IMG/VR virus record: IMGVR_UViG_2778261165_000018
Coordinates: 1-11,868 of that record
Strand: one strand, 5' to 3'
Length of the DNA: 11,868 bases
DNA from: a virus
Lineage: Duplodnaviria > Heunggongvirae > Uroviricota > Caudoviricetes
The translations under genes and the position numbers were made by a program. Position 1 is the stretch's first letter. Each line of letters opens with the position of its first letter. The notes under the pieces are model-generated. The model saw nothing but the letters and a program-made list of their open reading frames with translations, was not told the origin of the DNA and did no database searches. Positions 1 to 11,868 of the stretch are shown one piece after another.

Positions 1-342
1 ATGATGAAAAAAAGTATTCTGGCGTTTCTGTTACTCACCAGTTCTGCAGCGGCGCTGGCGGCACCGCAGGTGATTACCGTCAGCCGTTTTGAAGTGGGTA
101 AAGACAAATGGGCGTTTAATCGCGAAGAGGTGATGCTGACTTGCCGACCGGGTAATGCTTTGTATGTCATCAACCCAAGTACCCTCGTGCAGTATCCTTT
201 AAACGATATCGCACAAAAGGAAGTTGCCAGTGGGAAGACTAAAGCCCAGCCGATTTCGGTGATTCAGATTGATGATCCTAACAATCCCGGCGAAAAAATG
301 AGTCTGGCACCGTTTATAGAACGAGCTGAAAAACTCTGTTAA
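1..342 (+). CDS. yebY: Host DUF2511-family secreted protein (YebY-like), 113 aa with N-terminal signal peptide
   Basis: ATG at 1, TAA at 340-342. N-terminus [22 protein letters not shown] is a typical Sec signal peptide with an AXA cleavage motif. Sequence matches my recollection of E. coli YebY; not verified by search. Confidence 0.75.
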
Positions 343-370
343 TTACCTAAATAGCCTTTTGATTTCCAAT

Positions 371-412
371 AAAAAAACCGCCTCAGTTCTTTCACCAGAA
401 CGGGCGGTTTTT
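371..412. terminator. Intrinsic terminator downstream of yebY, bidirectional in form
   Basis: A7 run (371-377), GC-rich hairpin CCGCC...GGCGG (378-407) with inner stem GTTCT/AGAAC, then T5 (408-412). A-run before and T-run after allow termination in both directions. Confidence 0.7.
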
Positions 413-486
413 AACATTTAAGCTGATGACTACCGCGCTTTTTATTGACCATTTTGCACGCAAACTGGAAAACCTGGCGTCGTCAT

Positions 487-496
487 CTATTCTTAA
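487..496 (+). promoter_or_regulatory. Sigma-S type -10 element (CTATTCTTAA) for the downstream small RNA
   Basis: CTATTCTTAA is a 9/10 match to the RpoS-type extended -10 (CTATACTTAA) and includes the -13 C. Hexamer TATTCT at 488-493 puts the predicted start near 500. Confidence 0.45.
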
Positions 497-499
497 AGG

Positions 500-603
500 G
501 CAAGGCAACTAAGCCTGCATTAATGCCAACTTTTAGCGCACGGCTCTCTCCCAAGAGCCATTTCCCTGGACCGAATACAGGAATCGTATTCGGTCTTTTT
601 TTA
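500..603 (+). ncRNA. sdsR: Candidate SdsR (RyeB) RpoS-dependent small RNA, about 104 nt
   Basis: Predicted start about 500 (GCAAGGC...). Internal palindrome GCATTAATGC (about 518-527), hairpin GGCTCT/AGAGCC (542-559), and terminal hairpin GACCGAATAC/GTATTCGGTC (569-595) followed by T7 (596-602). No ORF with an RBS. I recall sdsR/ryeA lying next to yebY in E. coli and Salmonella. Confidence 0.55.
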
Positions 604-686
604 ATTGTATTTAAAATCAATCAGTTGCAAACGTCTTCCCGAAATTCCCCGAAATTTACTCGAATTTCTGTATTCCGGTCTTTTTT
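586..686. other. Candidate prophage attL region: two core-like 17-mers, IHF consensus site and tandem 10-bp repeats
   Basis: GTATTCGGTCTTTTTTT (586-602) recurs as GTATTCCGGTCTTTTTT (670-686). IHF consensus WATCAANNNNTTR matched at 615-627 (AATCAATCAGTTG). Three 10-bp-phased repeats CCCGAAATTC / CCCGAAATTT / ACTCGAATTT at 638-667. Integrase stop lies 47 bp further in, at 734. Confidence 0.4.
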
Positions 687-733
687 GGTTATATCACAAC
701 CAAAACACATTTAACAATCCATTTACGTTAAAA

Positions 734-1810
734 TCAGAGCAGTAAGTACGTTTTTTCTCGCTCATCAAGATACATTTTTGTTGTCTTCTCCGATGTGTGA
801 CCAAGTAGGCGCTGGGCAAATTCTTCTCCACATGTTTCTTTGTACAATCGTCCAGCCAGACTTCTGATCTCGTGAAAAGTTGGTGGGTTTTCACTGAACT
901 GGATACCTGTTAATTTTCTGGCTGCGACAAATTTTTTTGTCAGGCCATCCGGGTGAATGCTGCCGTCAGGGCTGTTTTTTCTAATCCCGGCACTGATTAG
1001 ATAATCTCCCCGGCTTACCAGGCGGCACCGTTCAACTACTGTACCAAGCCGTAGACCAGCGACAGGAAGGCTGAGTGACAGGGGGATAGCAATCATCATT
1101 CCTGTCTTAATTTGCCTGATGTGGAGACGATCATCATAAATATCACTGAACCGCATATTCGTTATGTCTTCGCGACGTTGTCCTGTTACAAGGGCTAAAT
1201 CCATAGCTAATGGGAACCATGCCGGCAGTTGATCTGCTGCCTCCCTGATGCAGTTGTATGTCTTTAGTTTCAGTCGTTCTCTTGTAACTACTATTTTCGG
1301 TGCTCTTGTTGGCGTTACTGGATTTTGAGATATACGTCCTTCAACAATGGCCTCGCGAAACATATCAGACAACACAGAACGCATTGATCCTGCCATTGTG
1401 TTTTTCCCTCCTTCAATCCACAAATCAAGAAACTCGGCAATATGGCGAGTTGTTATTTCTGTCAGTAAAATCCCTCCCAATTTTTCTTTTATTGTCTCCA
1501 GTTGATTTACCCGAATTTTATAAGTATTTCTGGACACTTTTCTCCTTATAAGAATCGTTTTGTAACGTTCAATCCAGTCTGCCATAGTAAATGAGTCGAA
1601 CCCTTTAAGCTTTTCAATTAAGGCAGCAGGAGAGTAGTTTTTGTATATATAATGATTTGCTTCAATTGCCTGCGCTACTGCATCTCTTCTTGAAATTTTA
1701 CCTAGTGTAAATTCTTCTTTCGTCAGAGGGTTGCGCCAGTAATATGCTTTGTCCCTCCTTCGATATGTTAAGTTTTTAGGCAAATTGGGATCGTATTTTT
1801 TCCGCTGCAT
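734..1810 (-). CDS. int: Lambda-family tyrosine integrase, 358 aa
   Basis: Collinear with lambda Int as recalled: N-terminal arm-binding region ([15 protein letters not shown]), catalytic-region motifs ([40 protein letters not shown]). RBS GGAGAAG 8 nt upstream of ATG at 1810. Confidence 0.9.
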
Positions 1811-2057
1811 GTTTTAACTTCTCCAGTAACGGACTGTCTCTCCCTTGTCGCCCATTAGGCTGATGGTGTGTTATATCGGTATCAACCTTATTTGGGTTGA
1901 TATAGAAAGCCTCCGGAACCACTCTGTAACTCCTCCCGTGTAGTTCAGGTGCAGGATAAATGTTTCCATTCCTTGCCCATCGTCTCAGCGTTGATATTGA
2001 TGGTGGGTTATCCGGATATCTGAGTTTTCCCCACGTTTTGAGTGTCACAAGATTCAT
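1776..2057 (-). CDS. xis: Excisionase (lambda Xis-like)
   Basis: Motif TLRRWARNGNIYPAPELHGRSYRV resembles lambda Xis (ETVRRWVRECRIFPPPVKDGREYLF). 3' end overlaps the int start by 35 nt as in lambda. Start chosen at the ATG at 2057 (RBS AAGAGG 7 nt upstream); the ATG at 2063 is too close to the RBS. Confidence 0.7.
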   Translation of the reverse strand: MNLVTLKTWGKLRYPDNPPSISTLRRWARNGNIYPAPELHGRSYRVVPEAFYINPNKVDTDITHHQPNGRQGRDSPLLEKLKHAAEKIRSQFA

Positions 2058-2163
2058 TGCCATACCTCTTACGATATGACCGCCAGTAAATATACAGAAT
2101 ACTGGCGGGTGTGGTTGATTTTTAATAATCAGCTATGAAGTTCTAATTTGTATATAATGCAAC

Positions 2164-2352
2164 TCACGAGGACAGAAGCTTCTCGCAATTAAAATTTATC
2201 AGCTTTACTTTCTGCTCTCTGGAAACGCCTGCTTCTTTTTTCCCTGAGAGCATTTTTTCGCATTCTGATTTCGTTAATTTAGATTTTGAATATCTTGTCC
2301 AGTTAGTAGGAGTGCCACCTTCTTTTTCAATAGTGGCAGTTATTTTATACAT
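2164..2352 (-). CDS. ydaC: Small prophage protein, YdaC-like, 62 aa
   Basis: ORF MYKITATIEKEGGTPTNWTRY... with RBS GGAGGTG directly upstream of the ATG at 2352. Overlaps the ralR stop by 8 nt. Position between xis and ralR matches Rac as I recall it. Confidence 0.6.
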   Translation of the reverse strand: MYKITATIEKEGGTPTNWTRYSKSKLTKSECEKMLSGKKEAGVSREQKVKLINFNCEKLLSS

Positions 2353-2539
2353 GAACACCTCCATTATTATTTCCAGTAGTTCGTTTATTCCATCTTTCGA
2401 GTGCTTCTTTTTCACTTCCACCATAGCCAGTTCGGGATTCGCATCCGTTGCATTTTGCCCGGTAATATCCTGAAATTGCTTTCACCGTAACAGATGGACA
2501 ACCACAAAACGGACATGGTTTAACATCGTCATATCTCAT
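2345..2539 (-). CDS. ralR: Restriction alleviation protein RalR/Lar (zinc-ribbon), 64 aa
   Basis: MRYDDVKPCPFCGCPSVTV...AKCNGCESRTGYG has a CxxC...CxxC zinc ribbon and matches my recollection of K-12 RalR. In-frame upstream ATGs at 2551 and 2578 would give 68 or 77 aa. Confidence 0.8.
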   Translation of the reverse strand: MRYDDVKPCPFCGCPSVTVKAISGYYRAKCNGCESRTGYGGSEKEALERWNKRTTGNNNGGVHV

Positions 2540-2595
2540 AATTTTTGTCATAAAAACTGTCTCACGTTGGCGGTGCATTACACCGCCAGGCTGAA

Positions 2596-3405
2596 TTATT
2601 CTTCTGAATTATCGATTACACTGTATTCCCCGGTTAATACAGAGGAGTCTGCCGGATCGATTGTCAGTGGTTCCTTTTCATCCATTGATACTGCACGCTG
2701 GATTTCAATTGAGACTGGCAGGTATTTAAACAGGCGACGAATAGCCGTTTTTTTTGCCATTTCTTCCCAGTGAGTTACCCATGGCCCGTTATTACCAGCC
2801 TTACTCTGGCTGCGCACCAGTTCAATCTGTTTGCGCGTCATAACTTCAAACTGAGTCCCTCCGTCTTTCAGTCTTGCGACAGCATAGACGTGGGTCACTG
2901 GTGCATCTTCGTTTTCTCCCGGGCGGTGTATTAACTTTTCATCAAGGCCAAATTCAAAACTAAACTCGTCACCTTCACGGACAACACGGGCTGACAGGCT
3001 GGCGATTTGACCAGAACGGCGAGCCAGATCAATCATGCCGCGATAACCAATGATTAGCTGAACGTTCTTTTTACCGCTCTTTTCGTTTTTATTACCAAAA
3101 GGCAGTAAATATGCGTGGCCGAGGGCGCTACCTGGCTCAAGGCCGAGCTGTGAACACTGAACGATCGCACTGACAAAACTCATGGTGTCACAGTTTCCTA
3201 GCGCCGGAACCTTACGAATTTCTGTGGTGGCGATACGTATCATTCGTTCAGCCGTCATATGGCGTGGGAGAGCTGCTGCCAGTTGCTCTTTCATTGATGG
3301 CTGATTAATAAAGCTGATCACGTCGTTATTTTTTACTGCTGCTGGTGCACGGTTTCCCTGGGTTTTTTGCAGATCGGCTTTTGCGATAGGTGGTTGCTTA
3401 GTCAT
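2596..3405 (-). CDS. recT: RecT single-strand annealing recombinase, 269 aa
   Basis: [27 protein letters not shown]... matches recalled Rac RecT over its whole length. RBS GGAG 7 nt upstream. Start overlaps the recE stop (3398-3405), indicating translational coupling. Confidence 0.9.
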
Positions 3406-6073
3406 TTGCATACTCCTTAGCCCAGCGGGGCAGTGATAACGTTTTAATAGCTGGCCATTCATCGGTATTCAGGCAGTCAGCCAGGGTCCTCAGATTGCGG
3501 TGATATTCCTGCTGGCCTGCCAGTTTTGCTTCTTCGCCCATCATGAAAATCTCAACCGGGTAACGTCCGCATTCAACAGTTGTGCTGGCAACCAGAAAAA
3601 CGAAAGTTGGCAGCACGCCAAACTGTGCTTCATAACCGTCACTGTAGAATGCATCCTGAACGTGATAGCGGTAGTCGTAATAAGCCGTTTTGAATCGTTG
3701 AATATCCGCTGTGGTTTTCACGTCCATGATCCAGTGAAATTCAGGAATAATTTTGTCCGGACGGCACCGACACAAAATTCCTGTTTCAGGATCTTCCCAG
3801 TAAATTGATGATTCAGCGTGTCCGGCGCTTTCAACAAGCCATTGACCCAGCGGCAAAGCCATAACGCTCTGATACATGAGTTCAATTTTCCGGCCTTCTT
3901 CGGCAGTGATAACCGTTTTTCCTGTGCTTGCGCATTCCATCAGAAACGCTTTCTCCTCTTCTTTTCCGGCGGTTGTACGGCGGTTAAATTCAGGTGCCAC
4001 GATAAAGCGGTTACTGAATTCTTCCGGTTCAAGTACACGGCAGTGGAAAGCGGTTCCTAAATCGAGCGTTTTTGTCTTTGTGGTGTCCACTGGGGCATTT
4101 TTACGCCACAAATACAGAGCCGGAGTATCAGCAATGTCGTCGAGCTGAGACTTACTGACACCGGGACCCGCGTGGTAATTCTCATTCGAAATTCCGTAAT
4201 AAATACCAGGCTCTATGTCTCCTGCGATTACGGGATCTGCGACTTCGCCAGTTTCATCACTGCAATCGCGATGCGGATCGCTGCCAGCATTCTCATTGTG
4301 CGGATGTTCAGGGCCTTCCATTTCCTCCGGATCTTTTTCCTGAGATTCATCCAGATTTTCTTCATTAAAGGTTTCCTGATACGTGGTGTCGCCCATCACC
4401 GCGCCACAATCAGGGCAGTTGCCGCCACCGCTCTGACCGCAGGCGGCACAGACTTTTTCCGGTTCCTGTTGCGCTACTGGTTCAGATTGTTTCGTTTCTG
4501 GCTCGTTTTTCTGTGCATTTGGGCTGTTTTGTTCCGCTTTCTGGTTGTTTTGTTCCGATTCGGGCTGGTTCTGGTTCACAGAATCTCGGGTTTCAATTCC
4601 CTTAACCCATTTCGGATCATTCGGGTCGCTAATCCCTTCAACAAATTCTCCGCGAGAGGCAGCCAGCAATTTGTCGGCATCGACAGGATTTTTGGGCGGA
4701 ATGGTTTTCCGGGCTTCATGGAGTTCTGCCCGCAGTTTCTGATATTTCGCATCAACAGAATTTACCTGTGACTGAGCATCCAGCGGCTGCGTGTCCTGAT
4801 GATGTTCAGTTGCATCCGGTTCCACTGTTTCAGCCGTTGCCTGTTTATCTGCCATTGCGCAAGATGGTTGCGGTTTTTCTTCACCATCGTGTTTTCCTTC
4901 TTCTGTTACACGCTGCGGCATCGGGGCAGAGGAACGACCGCAGGCAATATCCACGATTTCCGGATCAGGGTTGGCATGATCGGTTTCAATCAGCACCTTG
5001 TTCAGATATTCAGTGACATGCGCAGGGATAACCTCGATCCCAATTGGTGCTTCTTTTACGGACGCAACCACGATGGCGCGGGAATAATCCAGCCCGCCAG
5101 GCATGGTGATGAATTTGTCGCGGAAAACAGAAAAGGGCGGTTTATTTTCAGCGATAATTTCCTCGACACGTTTAGCGTGTGCCGGATGAAGGTTATAAAT
5201 GTCCACGTCCATTGAACGAGCCAGTACGCCAGTGGCTACGTCGCGCGCCAGTGACGTCAGATCGTGAACGAAACCTTCGCCGCGATCGGTGAGGTTCCCG
5301 CCGCCAGCATTAGCGCCGGAAGCCGTGCGCGTGATGCGTGAAACACGATTTCCTTTCATCCACTCTTTTGTCAGCAGACCGCGATCGGTGTAGTCTGCGT
5401 CCAGGTATGCTTCGAAAAAAGCAGTCATCAGCCCCAGGCTTGAATTGCCTGGATTAGGGAACACTCTGTCAGTATCACGCACCAGTTTGTGGAGATCGCG
5501 AATTTCCAGCGGGTCGAGCAGGCTGGTTTTGTGGGAAACAGCCAGGGCAGTAACAGCTGGTAGTTCTTCAGCCCGTGCAATGTGTAATGCCTGGAGTTCG
5601 TCGCGTGAAACGTGCGTTACCGGTTTTTCGCTGCCGTGTTGAGCAAGCCAGCGAATGGGCAGCTCCTGACCGGAAATCGGGAGTAGCATATTCTCCTCAA
5701 TCTCCGTCATGTCTTCGCCATTAACATTGGTATTGTCAGTGCTGGCTGGCTTGTCCTGCGCAGAGGATGAGGGCGCGATAAATACCATTGTGATGCCATC
5801 TTCCCCGCCTTTTTCGTAACGGTTGCAGAATTCCGTATCAAATACGCCTTCTGGTGGAAGGTCATCAACAACGGGCAAATTGACGCAAACAGGTTTTTTA
5901 AAGTCATCTTCATCGTAGCCAGCATCGTCAATCGCAACAGCACCACGGGAGATGGCAATGGATAATTTTTTCGCTTCAGCCCAGTAGAAACCGCCTTTAA
6001 TACCGAGACGTTTTCTTACTTTGTCATTTTTTGCTTCGTAATACAGTGGGTAAACTTGTTTATCGGTGCTCAT
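3398..6073 (-). CDS. recE: RecE exonuclease VIII, 891 aa
   Basis: C-terminal two-thirds (from [17 protein letters not shown] to the end ...[11 protein letters not shown]) matches recalled K-12 RecE, including the nuclease domain. The N-terminal roughly 110 residues differ from what I recall. ATG at 6073 with RBS GAGGT. Confidence 0.9.
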
Positions 6074-6143
6074 TGTTTTTTAACCTCAACTCAGATTAAA
6101 ATTAATGCGAGTGATGAATAAATGTCCCAGGTTCTTCACTCAG

Positions 6144-6173
6144 GCCTGCACAGTGTGCAGGCTTTCTTTTTTT
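6144..6173 (+). terminator. Plus-strand intrinsic terminator between racC stop and recE start
   Basis: Stem GCCTGCA (6144-6150), loop CAGTG, stem TGCAGGC (6156-6162), then TTTCTTTTTTT (6163-6173). It has terminator form only on the plus strand, opposite to the flanking genes. Confidence 0.5.
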
Positions 6174-6448
6174 CAGATTTCACCTTTTAATTTCATTGCA
6201 ATCAGAGTTGCCAGAAATTCGGCTTTTTTTTCTGCGGGCAGATTCTTTCCTATGTGCACCAGACACATTTTTTTAACACCATCGTTAAGTGTTTTAACGT
6301 TGCCTGATGGACCGTCGATATCAACCACAGTGAATGGGGTTTCTTTATTTTCTGTCTTAATCACGTAGCCAATACGCTTTCCTTCCAGGGTAACTTCGTG
6401 AACAATGTCATCAGTAGTAACAACAGTGGCTTCATAACTGGTAATCAT
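6173..6448 (-). CDS. racC: RacC, 91 aa prophage protein
   Basis: MITSYEATVVTTDDIVHEV... matches recalled K-12 RacC. RBS AAGGAGAAAAAC precedes the ATG at 6448. The longer track ORF starting at 6496 lacks an RBS. Confidence 0.8.
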   Translation of the reverse strand: MITSYEATVVTTDDIVHEVTLEGKRIGYVIKTENKETPFTVVDIDGPSGNVKTLNDGVKKMCLVHIGKNLPAEKKAEFLATLIAMKLKGEI

Positions 6449-6522
6449 GTTTTTCTCCTTAATTAAGGTTGAGCGAATCCCTGCCATTGCTGGCATAAAT
6501 TCAGTTTCGGATAGTCAGTTAA

Positions 6523-6693
6523 TTAAAGTTCGTGTGCCATCTGGTCTTTTTCGGCACAGATTTCACTACAATATTTTTTCATTTCCGTCGTTGGTATAAC
6601 TCCACGCATGAAATGAAGTGGTCTTGTAATGATTTTGCTTTCTTCAATTTCTTTATTGCAAAGGTGATAAGCACATTTTATTTTCTTAGTCAT
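6523..6693 (-). CDS. ydaE: YdaE-like small zinc-binding protein, 56 aa (absent from the ORF track)
   Basis: My translation of the minus strand: [56 protein letters not shown], with paired cysteines C-x4-C and C-x3-C. Its ATG overlaps the kilR stop (TAATG at 6691-6695). Confidence 0.7.
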   Translation of the reverse strand: MTKKIKCAYHLCNKEIEESKIITRPLHFMRGVIPTTEMKKYCSEICAEKDQMAHEL

Positions 6694-6914
6694 TACCATG
6701 ACTCCGCCTTTACAGGTAAACCATCACGACCGAGGAAGACTCTAATCATGCAGTCAGAAATGCATGTTTTTGTAGTCAGGCTACGAATATAAAGTTTTCG
6801 CTTTTTAATATTGTTTGCCGAGGCGATATATGTCCGACCTTCATGAAGAACATAATCGCCAGGGGTCACACACTGACGTGGTATTTCATCAGTTCCGAAG
6901 TGATGAGCAATCAT
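6693..6914 (-). CDS. kilR: KilR cell-division inhibitor, 73 aa
   Basis: [35 protein letters not shown]... matches recalled K-12 KilR. RBS GGAGAT 6 nt upstream of the ATG at 6914. Confidence 0.8.
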
Positions 6915-7419
6915 AATTATCTCCATTTTTACAAATGAATTTTGTCGATGCGGTGCCTGGTGCCTCCAGGTGACGTTAACCAGTTAACAATTAACGCCGG
7001 ATCGTGATATCACCTAAACAGATACGGGTTGTTTTTAACTGTTCCGCGTGCGCTGAGCCGCATTCACCGCATCACAAAATTCACTTTAAAAAGGACGGAC
7101 ATCAGCCAGCAATGAAACTGATGCCGCCAAAAGGTAATCAACATGGGTTGTTGCAGCGGGGTTGTCACTCAAGCGTATGGTCAACCTGACAACCCGGTGC
7201 TCCACAGGGGGAGGGAGAATAGCACCCCTGCCATACTTACCGCCGCGCCATTTCGCGGATTGCCACAACCGGAAGCGCACGGTCGAAGAAATTTAAAGAC
7301 AAGCCTTCTAAGGGAAAAACACCTCCTCCGTGCGCTTTCGTGTTGTGCGCCTGTCTTTTTACCACTTCAGGCTCGGTGGTATACTGGAGTTCTCACACAA
7401 CCAGTAATAAGGTATTCCG

Positions 7420-7614
7420 ATGGATAATAAAGACAAAGCCTGGCTACTTGCTTTAGCTTTCAGCATCAGATCGCAGCGAGAAACAACTCATCAAGAATTT
7501 TTCTCGGAAATCGAGAATGCTGAGAATGAGTTTTTGTCACTACTCAATGAACGTGATGCTAAAAAAAGCGCCGATTCACTTAAGGCTTGGGCGAAACTAG
7601 GCTCTTCAAAATAA
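7420..7614 (+). CDS. Hypothetical 64 aa protein in the position K-12 Rac gives to sieB
   Basis: ATG at 7420 with RBS AAGGT 6 nt upstream. Candidate promoter TTTTAC (7357-7362), 17 nt spacer, TATACT (7380-7385). No hydrophobic segment, so unlike a SieB membrane protein. Confidence 0.4.
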   Translation: MDNKDKAWLLALAFSIRSQRETTHQEFFSEIENAENEFLSLLNERDAKKSADSLKAWAKLGSSK

Positions 7615-7798
7615 TTGCTTCTGTAGCGGCATGAACAACTGTTTTTGCCGCCTCTTCAACTTCCTTGTCTGGACGACCAGCCTTTACTTTTTCTGCAATG
7701 ACCTCCAGCACAGTTGGAAGAACCTTGCTAATAAGCATGGCTGCCACATCTTTGCTGCACAATTGACCGTTAATAACAACCAGATCTTCACCAACCAT
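7580..7798 (-). CDS. Hypothetical 72 aa protein (possibly the intact form of the short ydaF/ydaG genes of K-12 Rac)
   Basis: ATG at 7798 with strong RBS AAGGGG 7 nt upstream. The track ORF extends to a TTG at 7855 without an RBS. Its 3' end overlaps the convergent 64 aa gene by 35 nt. Confidence 0.5.
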   Translation of the reverse strand: MVGEDLVVINGQLCSKDVAAMLISKVLPTVLEVIAEKVKAGRPDKEVEEAAKTVVHAATEAIILKSLVSPKP

Positions 7799-7977
7799 CT
7801 TTTTTCCCCTTAACGCCGGGTGGCGGAACGTTTTATCTACTGCGCTTTGTATCAATCAACAACTGCCGTCATGTTCGTATGCCTCAGGCTGGCTACTTAG
7901 CCCTGTTCAGTGGCTGGATAACTCGAGGTATTGTCCTGCCGTTCTCTGGTGGGGCGTTGTTTGGATATGACAAATGC

Positions 7978-7990
7978 TCACATATCGTGA
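7978..7990 (-). promoter_or_regulatory. Isolated operator-like site TCACGATATGTGA (read on the minus strand)
   Basis: Exact match to the TCACG-N3-TGTGA motif found three times in the racR/ydaS intergenic region. A perfect TTGACA lies on the minus strand at 8003-7998. Confidence 0.4.
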
Positions 7991-8043
7991 GTGATTTGTC
8001 AACTCAATATGTGAGCAATGTTGTTTTTGGATTTTTGATGGAC

Positions 8044-8076
8044 AAAAAAAGCCCTCGCTAATAGCGAGAGCTTTTT
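8044..8076. terminator. Bidirectional intrinsic terminator downstream of the repressor gene
   Basis: A7 (8044-8050), hairpin GCCCTCGCT/AGCGAGAGC (8051-8071), then TTTTT (8072-8076). Has terminator form in both orientations. Confidence 0.6.
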
Positions 8077-8102
8077 GATTGGAATCGAGGGAGATTAAAG
8101 GT

Positions 8103-8492
8103 TTAGGAGGATTTTTTCTGTTGCCTGCTTCTTAGATATTTTTCCACATACTCATCAAGCTCTTGAAGACGGATTTCGAACAGATCAATCATGCGTGCTT
8201 GTTCTGATCCCGGGAGCTGATTAAACAGCTCTAGCATTTTTTTCTGGTTATCATTTAACCATGAGTACGTGTTTTCCTGTTCACCGAACATTAATTCTGC
8301 GGGGGAAATGCCTAGTACTTGGCCGAGGATGATCGCATCCTCAGCCCCCACACTCCTGGTGCCAGCTTCGTAGTTAGCAATACGAGAAGAACCTGACCAA
8401 CCACATAGTTTTGCCAGGTTTCCCATACTTAATCCTCGATTTAGGCGAGTGGCTTTTAGGCGCTCGCCTATTTGTTCTGCAATCGTTTTCAT
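8103..8492 (-). CDS. racR: Prophage repressor, XRE/Cro-C1 family HTH (RacR-like), 129 aa from the ATG
   Basis: HTH signature LSMGNLAKLCGWSGSSRIANYEAG. Divergent from the cro-like ydaS across an operator-bearing intergenic region. Start taken at MKTIAEQ (8492); the track ORF extends upstream from a TTG. Confidence 0.75.
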   Translation of the reverse strand: MKTIAEQIGERLKATRLNRGLSMGNLAKLCGWSGSSRIANYEAGTRSVGAEDAIILGQVLGISPAELMFGEQENTYSWLNDNQKKMLELFNQLPGSEQARMIDLFEIRLQELDEYVEKYLRSRQQKKSS

Positions 8493-8505
8493 AGTTCCGA
8501 TTTTA

Positions 8506-8567
8506 TCACGATGTGTGAAATTGGCGGTACTCACGTATCTGTAGTTGATCTCACTCACGAAATGTGA
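8506..8567. promoter_or_regulatory. Three-site operator array (OR-like) between racR and ydaS
   Basis: TCACGATGTGTGA (8506-8518), TCACGTATCTGTA (8531-8543), TCACGAAATGTGA (8555-8567). Near-palindromic 13-mers spaced 25 and 24 bp centre to centre. Confidence 0.55.
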
Positions 8568-8572
8568 ATAAT
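8545..8572 (+). promoter_or_regulatory. Candidate rightward promoter for ydaS (pR-like)
   Basis: -35 TTGATC (8545-8550), 16 nt spacer, -10 AATAAT (8567-8572). Operator site 3 overlaps the spacer and -10. Confidence 0.35.
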
Positions 8573-8586
8573 AGAAACAGGAGGTA

Positions 8587-8832
8587 ATGATGAACAAAAT
8601 TTCAACATATCGAAAACAGCTTGGGCTGTCTCAAAGACAACTTGCTGTTCAGTTAGGGTGGATACAAAGCCGACTGGCAAATTACGAAGCAAATTTTCGT
8701 ACCCCTGGGCTAGAGGAGTGCAGAAAAATTGTTTCTACCCTTAATCGGCTTGGTGCTCATTGTGGACTTGACGATGTATTCCCCCCAGACGGTAAGCATA
8801 GCGAAAACAGCATAGGAGCGGTTGATTCATGA
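8587..8832 (+). CDS. ydaS: Cro-like HTH regulator YdaS
   Basis: HTH region LSQRQLAVQLGWIQSRLANYE. RBS GAGG fits the second ATG at 8590 better. Stop overlaps the ydaT start (ATGA at 8829-8832). Confidence 0.8.
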   Translation: MMNKISTYRKQLGLSQRQLAVQLGWIQSRLANYEANFRTPGLEECRKIVSTLNRLGAHCGLDDVFPPDGKHSENSIGAVDS

Positions 8833-9251
8833 AAATCAGGCATGAGCACATCGAATCAGTGTTGTTAGCCCTGGCAGCCGAAAAAGGGCAGGCGTGGGTC
8901 GCTAACGCAATTACTGAAGAATATCTGCGCCAGGGGGGCGGCGAATTGCCCCTTGTACCAGGCAAGGACTGGAACAATCAGCAGAATATCTATCACCGTT
9001 GGTTGAAAGGTGAAACGAAAGCGCAAAGGGAAAAAATTCAGAAACTCATCCCTGCGGTTCTGGCAATTCTTCCGCGCGAGCTGCGTCACCGACTCTGCAT
9101 CTTCGATACCCTGGAACGCCGTGCATTACTGGCGGCGCAGGAAGCGTTGAGTACGGCAATTGATGCGCATGATGATGCAGTACAGGCCGTTTACCGGAAA
9201 GCACATTTCAGCGGTGGTGGGTCGCCCGGCGATTCTGTCGTAGTGCATTGA
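8829..9251 (+). CDS. ydaT: YdaT-like protein (reported toxic partner of YdaS in Rac), 140 aa
   Basis: MKIRHEHIESVLLALAAEKGQAWVANAITEEY... matches recalled K-12 YdaT in length and sequence. Translationally coupled to ydaS. Confidence 0.8.
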   Translation: MKIRHEHIESVLLALAAEKGQAWVANAITEEYLRQGGGELPLVPGKDWNNQQNIYHRWLKGETKAQREKIQKLIPAVLAILPRELRHRLCIFDTLERRALLAAQEALSTAIDAHDDAVQAVYRKAHFSGGGSPGDSVVVH

Positions 9252-9296
9252 TTGAAATTAATCGTGCCGGATTGTTTTGTTCGGTATCAGTTAAAT

Positions 9297-9714
9297 GTAA
9301 CGCTGCGAGCGTTACAAGGTGAAAACAAATGGCTTCAAACTGGATAAAGCTCGAGGTTATTACGCCGGATAAGCCGGAAATATTCAGGCTTGCTGAGATT
9401 CTGAATATTGATCCAGATGCCGCATTAGGGAAGGTTATTCGCTTCTGGGCATGGGCGGATCAACAAATGATAGACGGTAATGCAGATTGTAACGCTCGCG
9501 GCGTTACAAAAAGTGCAATAGATCGCATCACTTTTATGGCTGGTTTTGCTGATGCGTTAATTCAGGTTGGATGGCTGGTCGAAAATGACGTTGGGCTTTC
9601 TCTACCTAACTTTGAACGTCATAACGGAAAAAGCTCTAAAAAACGGGCGGTTACAAACGAGCGAGTTACAAAAATACGCGAACTGAAACGAAAAGGTAAC
9701 GCTGCCAGCGTTAC
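9297..9714. repeat. Iteron-like 19-bp palindromes GTAACGCT-N3-AGCGTTAC (three good copies and one degenerate)
   Basis: GTAACGCTGCGAGCGTTAC (9297-9315, just upstream of the ydaU-like start), GTAACGCTCGCGGCGTTAC (9489-9507), degenerate GTTACAAACGAGCGAGTTACA (9650-9670), GTAACGCTGCCAGCGTTAC (9696-9714). An acidic linker with (GAGGAA)3 and an AT-rich patch follow at 9736-9775. Confidence 0.5.
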
Positions 9715-10117
9715 ACAAACGGATCAAAAAGCGTTACCAGAGGAAGAGGAAGAGGAAGATATAAATACTGATCTCCCCCTAAATCCCCCTCGTCAAAAAC
9801 GAGCGTCTAAAAAATTCGAGCCGGAGGCTATTGAGCTGCCCGATTGGTTGCCGGAAACACTCTGGCATGAGTGGGTCCGGTTCAGACAGGCATTGCGAAA
9901 ACCGATTCGAACGGAGCAGGGCGCTAACGGGGCGATACGGGAACTGGAAAAATTCCGTCAGCAGGGTTTTACACCTGAGCAGGTGATTCGACACAGCATC
10001 GCCAATGAATACCAGGGCCTGTTCGCGCCGAAAGGTGTTCGGCCTGAGACGTTGCTCCGACAGGTTAACACCGTCTCGTTGCCGGACAGTGCGATCCCGC
10101 CAGGCTTCAGGGGGTAA
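9329..10117 (+). CDS. ydaU: Phage replication initiation protein (YdaU-like, lambda O analogue), 262 aa
   Basis: RBS AGGTGA 6 nt upstream of the ATG. Lies immediately upstream of the DnaC-like loader, contains the palindromic repeats and a central acidic linker (EEEEEED). Family assignment is from memory. Confidence 0.7.
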   Translation: MASNWIKLEVITPDKPEIFRLAEILNIDPDAALGKVIRFWAWADQQMIDGNADCNARGVTKSAIDRITFMAGFADALIQVGWLVENDVGLSLPNFERHNGKSSKKRAVTNERVTKIRELKRKGNAASVTQTDQKALPEEEEEEDINTDLPLNPPRQKRASKKFEPEAIELPDWLPETLWHEWVRFRQALRKPIRTEQGANGAIRELEKFRQQGFTPEQVIRHSIANEYQGLFAPKGVRPETLLRQVNTVSLPDSAIPPGFRG

Positions 10118-10123
10118 CGGACC

Positions 10124-10870
10124 ATGAAAAATATTGCGACAGGCGGCGTTCTGGAACGCATCCGCCGACTGACCCCGCCACATGTAACCGCCCCATTCAG
10201 AACGGTAGCGGAGTGGCGCGAGTGGCAACTTGCTGAAGGCCAGAAACGTAGCGAGGAGATCAACCGCCTGAATCGCCAGTTGCGGGTGGAAAAAATTCTG
10301 AATCGCTCAGGCATCCAGCCGTTGCACCGTAAATGCTCGTTTGCGAATTACCAGGTGCAGAACGACGGCCAGCGATACGCGTTAAGCCAGGCGAAATCCA
10401 TCACCGATGAACTGATGACCGGGTGTACAAATTTTGCGTTCAGCGGAAAACCTGGTACCGGGAAGAATCACTTAGCGGCAGCTATCGGGAATCGCCTGCT
10501 GAAAGACGGTCAGACAGTGATTGTGGTTACCGTGGCTGATGTTATGAGCGCCCTGCACGCCAGCTATGACGACGGGCAGTCAGGCGAAAAATTTTTGCGG
10601 GAGCTGTGCGAAGTGGATCTGCTGGTTCTTGATGAAATTGGCATTCAGCGCGAGACAAAAAACGAGCAGGTGGTGCTGCACCAGATTGTTGATCGCCGGA
10701 CAGCGTCGATGCGCAGCGTGGGGATGCTGACAAACCTGAACTATGAGGCCATGAAAACATTGCTCGGCGAGCGGATTATGGATCGCATGACCATGAACGG
10801 CGGGCGATGGGTGAATTTTAACTGGGAGAGCTGGCGTCCGAATGTCGTCCAGCCAGGAATTGCGAAGTGA
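10124..10870 (+). CDS. ydaV: DnaC-like replicative helicase loader (AAA+ ATPase, IstB-like), 248 aa
   Basis: Walker [14 protein letters not shown] and Walker [10 protein letters not shown]. Length and sequence match recalled K-12 YdaV. Confidence 0.9.
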
Positions 10871-10892
10871 TTTTTACCGGGAGGAAATTTTA

Positions 10893-11645
10893 ATGGAAAC
10901 TGTATTTGACGCACTGAAAGCAATGGGAAAAGCCACGTCGGTAGAACTGGCTGCGCGACTTGATATCAGTCGTGAAGAGGCTGTCAACGAGCTGTGGGAA
11001 CTCAAAAGAAATGGCGTTGTTGATAAAACTGGTCACACCTGGTCTCTGGCTGGCGAAGGTGAATCCCGGGTAACCGAAGAGCGGCCAGTAAAATCTGAAG
11101 CACAGGATATGCTGACCGGGGAGGTCGAACAAAAAGTTACCGCAGACATGATGATTGAGTTTATCGGTCAGGATGGGGCTAAAACGTGTGAGGAACTGGC
11201 GGGTAAGTTCGGTGTCAGTACTCGCAAGGTTGCTTCCACGCTGGCGGTGGTAACCGCAACGGGGCGGCTGGCACGCGTTAATCAGAACGGTAAATTTCGT
11301 TACTGCATGCCGGGCGATAATTTACCAGCAGAGCCGAAAGCCGCGCTGGTAACGGAAAGTGATGGTAAGGCCTTTCCTCAACCAGCAGGTGTTGCGTTAC
11401 CGGGACAGGAAGCTGCAACACAGGAAGATATTAAAACAGAAACTGTGGCAGACATTGTGCAGCCGCTTGAGAAGCGAGTGGATAATCTGGTTCTGCCATC
11501 GCTGCGACAGGCAAACCGCGAACTGCGTCGGGCGAAAAGTGATATCCGGAAATGGGAGCGAGTCTGTGTCGCGCTGCGGGAGCTGAATAAATATCGCGAT
11601 ATTGTCGCCCAGCTTTGCCAGGAGGCAACCAGTGAGCAAAATTAA
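10893..11645 (+). CDS. Hypothetical prophage protein with two winged-helix-like segments and a C-terminal helical region (YdaW-like), 250 aa
   Basis: Start chosen at the ATG at 10893 (RBS GGGAGG about 9 nt upstream) rather than the track start at 10842, which overlaps ydaV. Two helix-turn-helix-like stretches (around [26 protein letters not shown] and [21 protein letters not shown]). Confidence 0.6.
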
Positions 11646-11868
11646 CTATCAGGCACTACGTGAGATAGCAAAACAGGCAACACAGGGCGAATGGGTCGCG
11701 TTTATTTCGACGGGTACAGGTACGTATGCTGTGCATACGCCCGGTGATAAACGATGTGAAGATGTTATCAAATGGACCGGCTTTGATGGACTGAAAAACG
11801 CAGAGAACAACGCTCGTTATATTGCCGCATTCAACCCAAAGGTTGCACTGGAGCTACTTGGTGAAATT
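11632..11868 (+). CDS. Hypothetical prophage protein, 5' partial (runs off the window end)
   Basis: GTG at 11632 preceded by GGAGG (11621-11625) at 6 nt. Open frame to the window end ([28 protein letters not shown]...). Overlaps the upstream gene's stop by 14 nt. Confidence 0.5.

Follow-up and report, generated by a model that had tools for sequence, protein, structure and literature searches.

A probable replication origin within the initiator gene of a Rac-like prophage, marked by palindromic sites that covary with the initiator protein

In phage lambda, the middle part of the initiator gene O contains an AT-rich tract and 19-bp iterons that are inverted repeats, and two iterons together with the tract suffice for unwinding (PMC7466680). 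In iteron plasmids, the sites adjoin an unwinding element, to which the initiator may bind as a single strand too (PMC10602881, PMC4081077). An active origin, oriJ, has been reported for the Rac prophage of Escherichia coli K-12 (PMC3945230; Potrykus et al. 2000, cited in PMC11014345), and we found no sequence-level definition of it in the literature searched. Here we describe an 11,868-nucleotide stretch of a related prophage (positions 1 to 11,868 of IMG/VR record IMGVR_UViG_2778261165_000018; hereafter the window), in which two palindromes, sites A and B, lie inside the predicted replication initiator gene and a third, P0, lies just before it. An initial annotation, made from the sequence alone, had read these as iteron-like repeats of an origin embedded in an O-like gene. 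Our comparisons lead us to consider it likely that the palindromes are the cognate sites of the initiator, and that positions 9477-9774 form the conserved core of an origin embedded in its gene. An origin inside a phage initiator gene is of a known kind, and this would be a variant with an unusual site layout, striking dual coding, and recognition that covaries with the protein. We found no description of this origin type in the literature searched, and an older account in a subscription journal is possible.

The pattern GTAACGCT-N3-AGCGTTAC, which the initial annotation had placed at 9297, 9489, and 9696, occurs at these three positions with 0, 1, and 0 mismatches, respectively (coordinates of all features are given in Table 1), and the form GTAACGC-N5-GCGTTAC fits all three palindromes perfectly. 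Shuffling gave a chance expectation of 0.01 matches, and none of 200 shuffles contained three or more. P0 and site A are 192 bp apart and sites A and B 207 bp, with A and B starting at +160 and +367 of the initiator open reading frame. Seven of the window's 10 exact half sites fall within 9297-9737. Half sites at 9731-9737 (exact) and 9477-9483 (one mismatch) had been missed earlier, and relatives L091 to L093 have an exact GTAACGC at the latter position. No tandem direct repeats were found, the repeats being palindromes and 7-bp half sites, and they do not qualify as iterons as usually understood; what is conserved is a pair of palindromes about 200 bp apart with accompanying half sites. A degenerate copy previously proposed at 9650 was not retrieved at up to 3 mismatches. 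It consists of two direct GTTAC pentamers from Val-Thr codons that shift among close relatives (9650, 9662, 9664, 9667) and are absent from diverged homologues, and it was rejected as a site. DnaA boxes were not enriched (37 matches versus 33 expected, with 0 at one mismatch or fewer in 9200-9900).

The proposal also withstood the genome-wide frequency check suggested for these repeats. Of the 5426 complete E. coli genomes, 688 have a 30-mer that contains the first palindrome (median 2 places per genome, maximum 4), and 678 hold at least 80% of the 2.1-kb replication region. Since carriers of the 30-mer are about as many as carriers of the region, the palindrome is not a dispersed host repeat.

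We compared the locus with 83 diverse loci, 191 unique related loci, and 68 unique close relatives. The hosts of the diverse loci include Enterobacterales, Pseudomonas, Burkholderiales, Xanthomonadales, Verrucomicrobiota, Planctomycetota, and others. When a palindrome was scored as 7+5+7 with at most one mismatch, site A was kept in 69 and site B in 57 of these 83 loci; both positions were occupied in 50, and in 45 of the 50 the two palindromes had an arm 5-mer in common. Site A lies at about +148, or at +160 in the sub-branch of the window, which has a 4-codon insertion, and site B follows 189-265 bp downstream. The A-B spacings cluster at 198, 207-212, 219-221, and 228-231 bp; we make no claim of helical phasing, as kinship and in-frame indels confound these clusters. 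Among the close relatives, the arms of all three sites are almost invariant while the spacer centres (9305-9307, 9499, and 9705) are hypervariable, which is the pattern expected of a site bound by a dimer. Half sites in direct orientation, in a 12-bp register, are conserved as well, although they are incapable of forming hairpins.

Codon usage separates the conservation of the DNA from that of the protein. The peptide at site A is G-N-A-x-x-V-T, and in 61 loci picked by this peptide alone, GTT encodes Val in 59 (versus 32% in the remainder of these genes), GCT encodes Ala in 55 (versus 22%), and AAC encodes Asn in all 61 (versus 71%). At site B, where the protein is poorly conserved, the palindrome is read in all three frames (35, 12, and 3 loci); the window reads it as GGT AAC GCT, and TL-2011b and a Klebsiella phage read it as GTA ACG Cxx. 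Judged from these alignments, the palindromes are under selection at the DNA level beyond any constraint on the protein. A scan of viral contigs used the two-palindrome DNA pattern alone. It returned at least 120 contigs, and all 120 pattern contigs listed encode the N-terminal domain (N-domain) of the initiator (E at most 1e-36). The first palindrome lies at +148 to +160 in 105 of the 120, with site A starts seen at +148, +151, and +160. A second viral scan, with alignment, mainly recovered the same close relatives again.

Directly beyond site B, nearly every locus repeats one layout: an optional half site, palindrome B, 4-5 nucleotides, the half site GCGTTACC, a polypurine tract (typically AGAGAAGAGAAGAGAAGAGAAGA), and an AT-rich stretch. 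In the window, GCGTTACC stands at 9731-9738 and is followed by an uninterrupted 21-nt purine run, the longest purine or pyrimidine run of the window, and an equivalent layout was found in 47 of 53 loci. Together, run and patch begin one base past the last half site. Within the roughly 3.4-kb locus, the 30-mer richest in purines falls 0-90 nt 3' of site B in 47 of the 53 loci, and the 30-mer of lowest GC content falls at most 110 nt beyond site B in 38. The (GAGGAA)3 acidic linker of the initial annotation is present at 9740-9757, but it is not merely a linker, being the local form of a polypurine tract conserved at the DNA level. The AT-rich patch reported with it amounts to about 15 nt only, yet the least stable duplex of 9200-10150 is formed by the 30-mers that start at 9743-9757, which rank at the 96th-98th percentile within the whole window. 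Xanthomonas and Pseudomonas phages, at 65% and about 60% GC, respectively, build the tract from AGA and ATA codons, which GC-rich genomes of this sort seldom use. In close relatives, the count of GAGGAA units is polymorphic, with 6-nt deletions and insertions of up to 24 nt, so the acidic linker and the purine tract change length by slippage. After the AT patch, 9775-9789 reads CCCCC-TAAAT-CCCCC and encodes PLNPP; similar C5-N3-7-C5 elements recur there in 6 of 85 loci only, from E. coli, Klebsiella, Samsonia, Pseudohongiella, and Ralstonia.

The gene that holds these sites encodes a composite protein. Against PHROG, the 262-residue initiator matched phrog_2509 "replication initiation protein" (E 2e-89), and the whole protein gave no Pfam hit. 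The name "ydaU-like" given to it earlier suits its C-terminal half, since the alignment with K-12 YdaU is confined to residues 139-262 (81% identity), but not its N-terminal half, which is unrelated to that of YdaU. The C-terminal part resembles DnaT (PDB 2ru8, E 9e-5), the sole match in a sequence search of the PDB, and is related to the C-terminal halves of the Gifsy-1 and mEpX1 O proteins and to phrog_678 "O-like". The N-domain had no Pfam match at E up to 1, nor did the same part of 25 homologues. We treat it as a family comprising relatives of phrog_2509, phrog_9474, and phrog_3926; it has 6620 representatives (50% identity clusters, E up to 1e-3) and no Pfam model. By itself, the N-terminal half was found in phages of Escherichia, Klebsiella, Xanthomonas, Pseudomonas, Ralstonia, and Vibrio and in prophages of Verrucomicrobiota, Planctomycetota, Burkholderiales, and others. 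An AlphaFold2 model built from 26 sequences had a predicted local distance difference test score (pLDDT) of 66, with core residues 16-95 modelled well as two helices, a loop that contains the site A codons, a helix-turn-helix (HTH), and a beta hairpin; the basic segment that follows had low pLDDT and was poorly ordered. Fold matches of the N-domain were weak winged-helix ones and not decisive, so the model is compatible with a winged-helix DNA binder without proving one. The candidate sites and the polypurine/AT tract together span codons 50-149 of the initiator and end at the linker.

Changes in the arms of the palindromes were matched by changes in the protein. From locus to locus, the arm sequence changes jointly in both arms, at both sites, and in the flanking half sites. 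GTCACGC..GCGTGAC arms were found in loci L088, L109, L145, L157, and L165, and GTTGCGC..GCGCAAC in L110, where both sites and three flanking half sites have it. A further type, GTCCGC-N7-GCGGAC, lies at +65 and at +344 or +353 in epsilon15 and BUCT711. The half site before the tract shifts with the arm type, to GCGTGACC, GCGCAACC, or GCGGACC. On the protein side, we counted residues +9 and +13 after a conserved RHNG anchor: GTAAC arms go with T and V, respectively (66 of 70 loci), GTCAC arms with any residue and K or Q (6 of 6), and GTTGC arms with A and M (1 locus). In the core domain, GTCAC-type proteins are nearer to GTAAC-type proteins than to one another (the L109 core has 71% identity to that of L104 and at most 53% to other GTCAC types), which speaks for several switches or an exchange of the basic segment together with the sites.

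The remaining parts of the module are far less constant. Beyond the linker, the proteins divide into at least 18 clusters that are unrelated to one another, and the genes downstream form at least 21, among them P-like, DnaC-like, DnaB-like, and primase-like ones. This leaves the N-domain as the only constant candidate reader of the sites. K-12 ydaU is without GTAACGC sites and has an array of its own, five copies of CAGATGTTCAAACA, just 5' of the junction where its homology with the window gene begins; its different N-terminal half and separate array indicate that N-domain and repeats are exchanged together. In the Pusillimonas sp. T7-7 episome (41 kb), the genome's only full palindrome and its longest purine run (29 nt) are both in the initiator gene. 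Deposited as a "plasmid", this record (L294; NC_015459.1, 41205 bp) is in fact the entire genome of a temperate phage: it has genes for capsid, portal, terminase, tail, and integrase, a CII-like gene, and the same initiator module, and MOB-suite assigns it the replicon rep_cluster_1580. A plasmid collection held two records with the N-domain, and since one of them is clearly a whole phage genome, they provide no independent evidence of a plasmid replicon.

P0 has a narrower distribution than A and B. As the initial annotation had it, this copy lies just upstream of the ribosome-binding site, ending one base before the Shine-Dalgarno sequence AAGGTG (9316-9321) of the ATG at 9329. It is present in 33 of the 191 unique loci, all from a sub-branch 71-100% identical to the window N-domain, at -32/-33 or -42 to -44 and in several unrelated intergenic contexts, and some loci have additional half sites 12 bp from it. 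In Pantoea locus L092, the P0 segment is identical to that locus's own site A segment, which suggests from sequence that P0 arose by duplication. No promoter-like or plus-strand terminator-like site overlaps P0. A single promoter-like site was found, at 8545-8572, and none of the three palindromes is overlapped by a sigma-70-like promoter. In the predicted fold, the RNA of P0 forms a hairpin that leaves the Shine-Dalgarno sequence exposed, with a fold z-score of only -1.2. We regard P0 as an accessory predicted initiator box of one enterobacterial sub-branch, possibly autoregulatory; autoregulation through P0, which had been raised as an alternative to an origin, may exist in addition to origin function.

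Set against the described systems, the predicted origin would be analogous in function to those of lambda and Stx phages. As in these, it is placed inside the initiator gene, in the stretch coding for the link between a DNA-binding N-domain and a C-domain that recruits the loader. The sites are again 19-bp dyads, and the tract that adjoins them has purine/pyrimidine strand asymmetry and melts easily (here by prediction). N-domain and sites are exchanged as one module, and a helicase-loader gene is next. There are differences as well. The N-domain here belongs to another family, without a Phage_rep_O or other Pfam match, and the loader is DnaC-like instead of lambda P. Lambda-type origins have 4-6 tandem iterons, whereas here two full sites lie about 200 bp apart with half sites, one of them in the middle of the coding sequence of the DNA-binding domain; even with P0 included, the three full sites are far from an array of at least three iterons of about 19 bp at 20-25 bp spacing. 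In place of the 40-bp AT block, there is a (GAGAA)n/(GAGGAA)n polypurine run. What the window does share fully is the layout of its own N-domain family, a palindrome in the family's own coding region and a second about 200 bp downstream with the same arms.

The K-12 Rac prophage is alike in type and position and in its order of racR, ydaS, ydaT, initiator, and ydaV (source genome and MG1655), and the C-terminal half of its initiator is the part shared with ours. The N-terminal half of YdaU (DUF1376) is unrelated, and with its different array this indicates that the window has a different (predicted) origin specificity at the oriJ position. In K-12 MG1655 ydaU, the array spans L002:9472-9580 (record 1421471-1421579) and comprises five CAGATGTTCAAACA-like repeats at spacings of 33, 33, and 12, plus an inverted copy; from their sequence, these are candidate oriJ iterons. 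Iteron replication proteins such as pPS10 RepA, F RepE, and RK2 TrfA also bind DNA through winged-helix-like domains (predicted here), and their sites also adjoin an unwinding element (again predicted here). The combination of full palindromes and single half sites recalls their use of dimers on inverted repeats for autorepression and of monomers on iterons for initiation. No sequence relationship between them and this initiator was detected, however; their sites are upstream of the gene and not within it, no direct array of 17-22 bp iterons was found here, and a single-strand binding module, if used, would be the DnaT-like domain. Finally, Salmonella phage epsilon15 gp42, annotated as a "DNA replication protein", is an N-domain homologue (32% identity over residues 1-176). 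Its gene shows the same layout, with a pair of palindromes where the N-domain is encoded, half sites, GCGGACC running into AGAGAAGAGAAGAGAAGAGAAGA, and an AT patch. It differs in the GTCCGC-N7-GCGGAC recognition sequence and in the position of the first palindrome, +65 versus +148. The fourth recognition sequence thus seen in gp42 (L296:1266-1284 and 1545-1620) and in Klebsiella phage BUCT711 comes with GCGGAC half sites, a AGAGAAGAGAAG tract, and an AT patch. No rep_origin feature was found in positions 30000-39672 of the epsilon15 record, where protein-binding sites and stem-loops are annotated.

Taken together, the comparisons establish directly that the sites exist, that they are selected as DNA, that they covary with the protein, and that their layout is conserved. 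We propose the following sequence of events at the probable origin. Dimers of the N-terminal domain would bind GTAACGC-N5-GCGTTAC at P0, A, and B through the winged-helix-like core (residues ~16-95) and the basic segment (residues ~101-118), with the single half sites at 9477 and 9731 supplying further contacts. The duplex would then open at 9739-9774, where the polypurine tract and AT patch lie directly beside site B and the half site at 9731, and the DnaT-like C-domain would hold single-stranded DNA, recruit the DnaC-like loader YdaV with host DnaB, or both. P0 could serve as a third anchor, evenly spaced at about 200 bp, or as a damper of the initiator's own expression. A bolder version is more doubtful, and we offer it tentatively: the module may be a portable, phylum-spanning cassette of origin and reader, with the sites set in the codons of the initiator's own DNA-binding domain, A and B, about 200 bp apart, bridged into a loop instead of assembling a tandem O-some, the tract opened by a transcription-dependent RNA-DNA hybrid from the initiator's purine-rich mRNA, and a residue code in the basic helix pairing T/V with GTAAC, x/K with GTCAC, and A/M with GTTGC.

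Several points weigh against this interpretation. Binding by the protein, unwinding at the tract, and origin activity are steps that we infer. To our knowledge, the characterised lambdoid origins are all tandem, with three to six sites, and here there are two dispersed palindromes. Some members from Verrucomicrobiota retain a half site alone at position A. The tract of the window is only moderately AT-rich, at about 45-50% GC, and elsewhere in the window there are 30-mers with lower GC content and 30-mers with more purines. Covariation could also stem in part from shared ancestry or from the exchange of basic segment and sites as a module. Nevertheless, the earlier proposal of an origin embedded in an O-like gene is strongly supported by the DNA-level conservation, the covariation, and the adjacent polypurine/AT tract, while some of its details were wrong.

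Other explanations account for parts of these observations. The palindromes may be operators only, through which the initiator or another regulator controls the replication operon by a block at P0 and a roadblock at A and B, with the origin elsewhere. Autorepression by initiator dimers on inverted repeats is known in iteron plasmids, P0 stops one base short of the Shine-Dalgarno sequence, and its restriction to one lineage places it outside the conserved core. We nonetheless think this unlikely: the conserved sites are the intragenic ones, none of the three is overlapped by a sigma-70-like promoter, the coupling of site B to a half site and a polypurine/low-GC tract is needless for an operator, and lambdoid origins occupy exactly this place in the initiator gene (PMC7466680). 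The sites might also be bound by another protein, from the host or from the phage (the CII-like YdaT or the repressor, for example), and HTH regulators are indeed encoded just upstream in the window. Such a binder is hard to credit, as neighbour genes differ among loci while the N-domain alone is constant, DnaA boxes are not enriched, and any host factor would need to exist in at least six phyla and still change specificity in step with the basic segment of the initiator. Function as RNA, with hairpins in the operon mRNA, or as single-stranded DNA hairpins that affect translation, stability, or priming, would fit the ability of each palindrome to form an 8-9 bp stem with a 3-nt loop, the P0 hairpin in the predicted fold, and the compensatory arm changes that preserve pairing. 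It is highly improbable all the same, given that the arm sequence itself is near-invariant across phyla with only four variants, that these variants follow the amino acids of the initiator, and that conserved lone half sites and direct half-site arrays could not pair; there was no Rfam family match, and the modest z-score of P0 and its exposed Shine-Dalgarno sequence point the same way.

The conserved DNA, and the polypurine tract at the domain junction in particular, could alternatively be a recombination linker for the exchange of initiator modules. The tract stands exactly where at least 18 unrelated C-terminal parts join the N-domain and where the window gene and K-12 ydaU diverge, and its repeat copy number is polymorphic. 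This would leave the palindromes, their covariation with the protein, and the position of site A in mid-N-domain unexplained, and near-identical tracts in Planctomycetota and Enterobacterales, kept with rare AGA/ATA codons, point to a function in each genome. As a replacement for an origin we judge it very unlikely, but it is compatible with one, and the two ideas are not exclusive. Finally, palindromes A and B share a reading frame in the window, and each encodes N A.. V T, so the repeats might be a by-product of an N-A-x-x-V-T motif required by the protein. The probability of this is negligible: P0 is non-coding, site B is read in three frames as unrelated peptides, synonymous positions are frozen, and the model puts site A in a loop of low confidence, at which the sub-branch of the window has a 4-residue insertion.

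The surroundings of the initiator gene are those of a Rac-like prophage, and the order CII-like gene, initiator, DnaC-like loader matches lambdoid replication regions (Table 1). The integrase, at about 1-1810 of the window (L001:1-2011), is interrupted by an IS3-family element, its two pieces being annotated as pseudogenes, and with its integrase split this prophage copy is probably incapable of self-excision. On the minus strand, site B followed by CTTTTCGTTT was flagged as intrinsic-terminator-like, in a count at chance level (1 found, 2.0 expected). GATC occurs at 9410, 9458, 9521, 9722, and 9770, that is, 5 times in the first 445 nt of the initiator gene against a random expectation of about 1.7; its total in the window, 41, is near expectation.

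Table 1. Genes, candidate sites, and candidate unwinding element, with positions in the window.
Feature	Position	Strand	Description
int (split by IS3), xis, ralR, recT, recE, kil	before racR-like gene		
racR-like repressor gene	8103-8597	-	
ydaS-like HTH gene	8587-8832		
ydaT/CII-like gene	8829-9251		stop codon 9249-9251
P0	9297-9315	.	palindrome GTAACGCTGCGAGCGTTAC, between ydaT-like stop codon and Shine-Dalgarno sequence
Replication initiator gene	9329-10117	+	262 aa; N-terminal domain, basic segment, acidic linker, DnaT-like C-domain
Half site GTAATGC	9477-9483	+	one mismatch; 12 bp upstream of site A, in the sub-branch-specific 4-codon insertion
Site A	9489-9507	.	palindrome GTAACGCTCGCGGCGTTAC within codons 54-60 (C N A R G V T) of the N-domain
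Basic segment	9629-9682	+	codons 101-118 (KSSKKRAVTNERVTKIRE); proposed base-reading element; contains the 9650 "degenerate copy"
Site B	9696-9714	.	palindrome GTAACGCTGCCAGCGTTAC, codons 123-129
Half site	9731-9737	-	exact; GCGTTAC on + strand, adjoins purine run
Polypurine tract	9739-9759	+	AGAGGAAGAGGAAGAGGAAGA, encodes EEEEEED; candidate unwinding element, part 1
AT patch	9760-9774	.	TATAAATACTGATCT, ~15 nt; candidate unwinding element, part 2
ydaV-like DnaC-type helicase loader gene	10124-10870	+	NCBIfam PRK12377 E 8e-153; DnaC E 6e-91; phrog_50 "DnaC-like helicase loader"
DUF1627 gene	after ydaV		

These results give a directly testable prediction, at the level of sequence, of where replication would start in a module that is very common among prophages and is present in about 680 of the 5426 complete E. 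coli genomes. They also describe a case of dual coding in which a protein's own predicted binding site constrains the codons of its DNA-binding domain across phyla. The four arm types, matched to residue changes, are natural specificity variants for dissecting or re-engineering origin recognition. Possible uses include the annotation of prophage origins, and the same sites may help to explain replication incompatibility and module exchange among Rac-like prophages.

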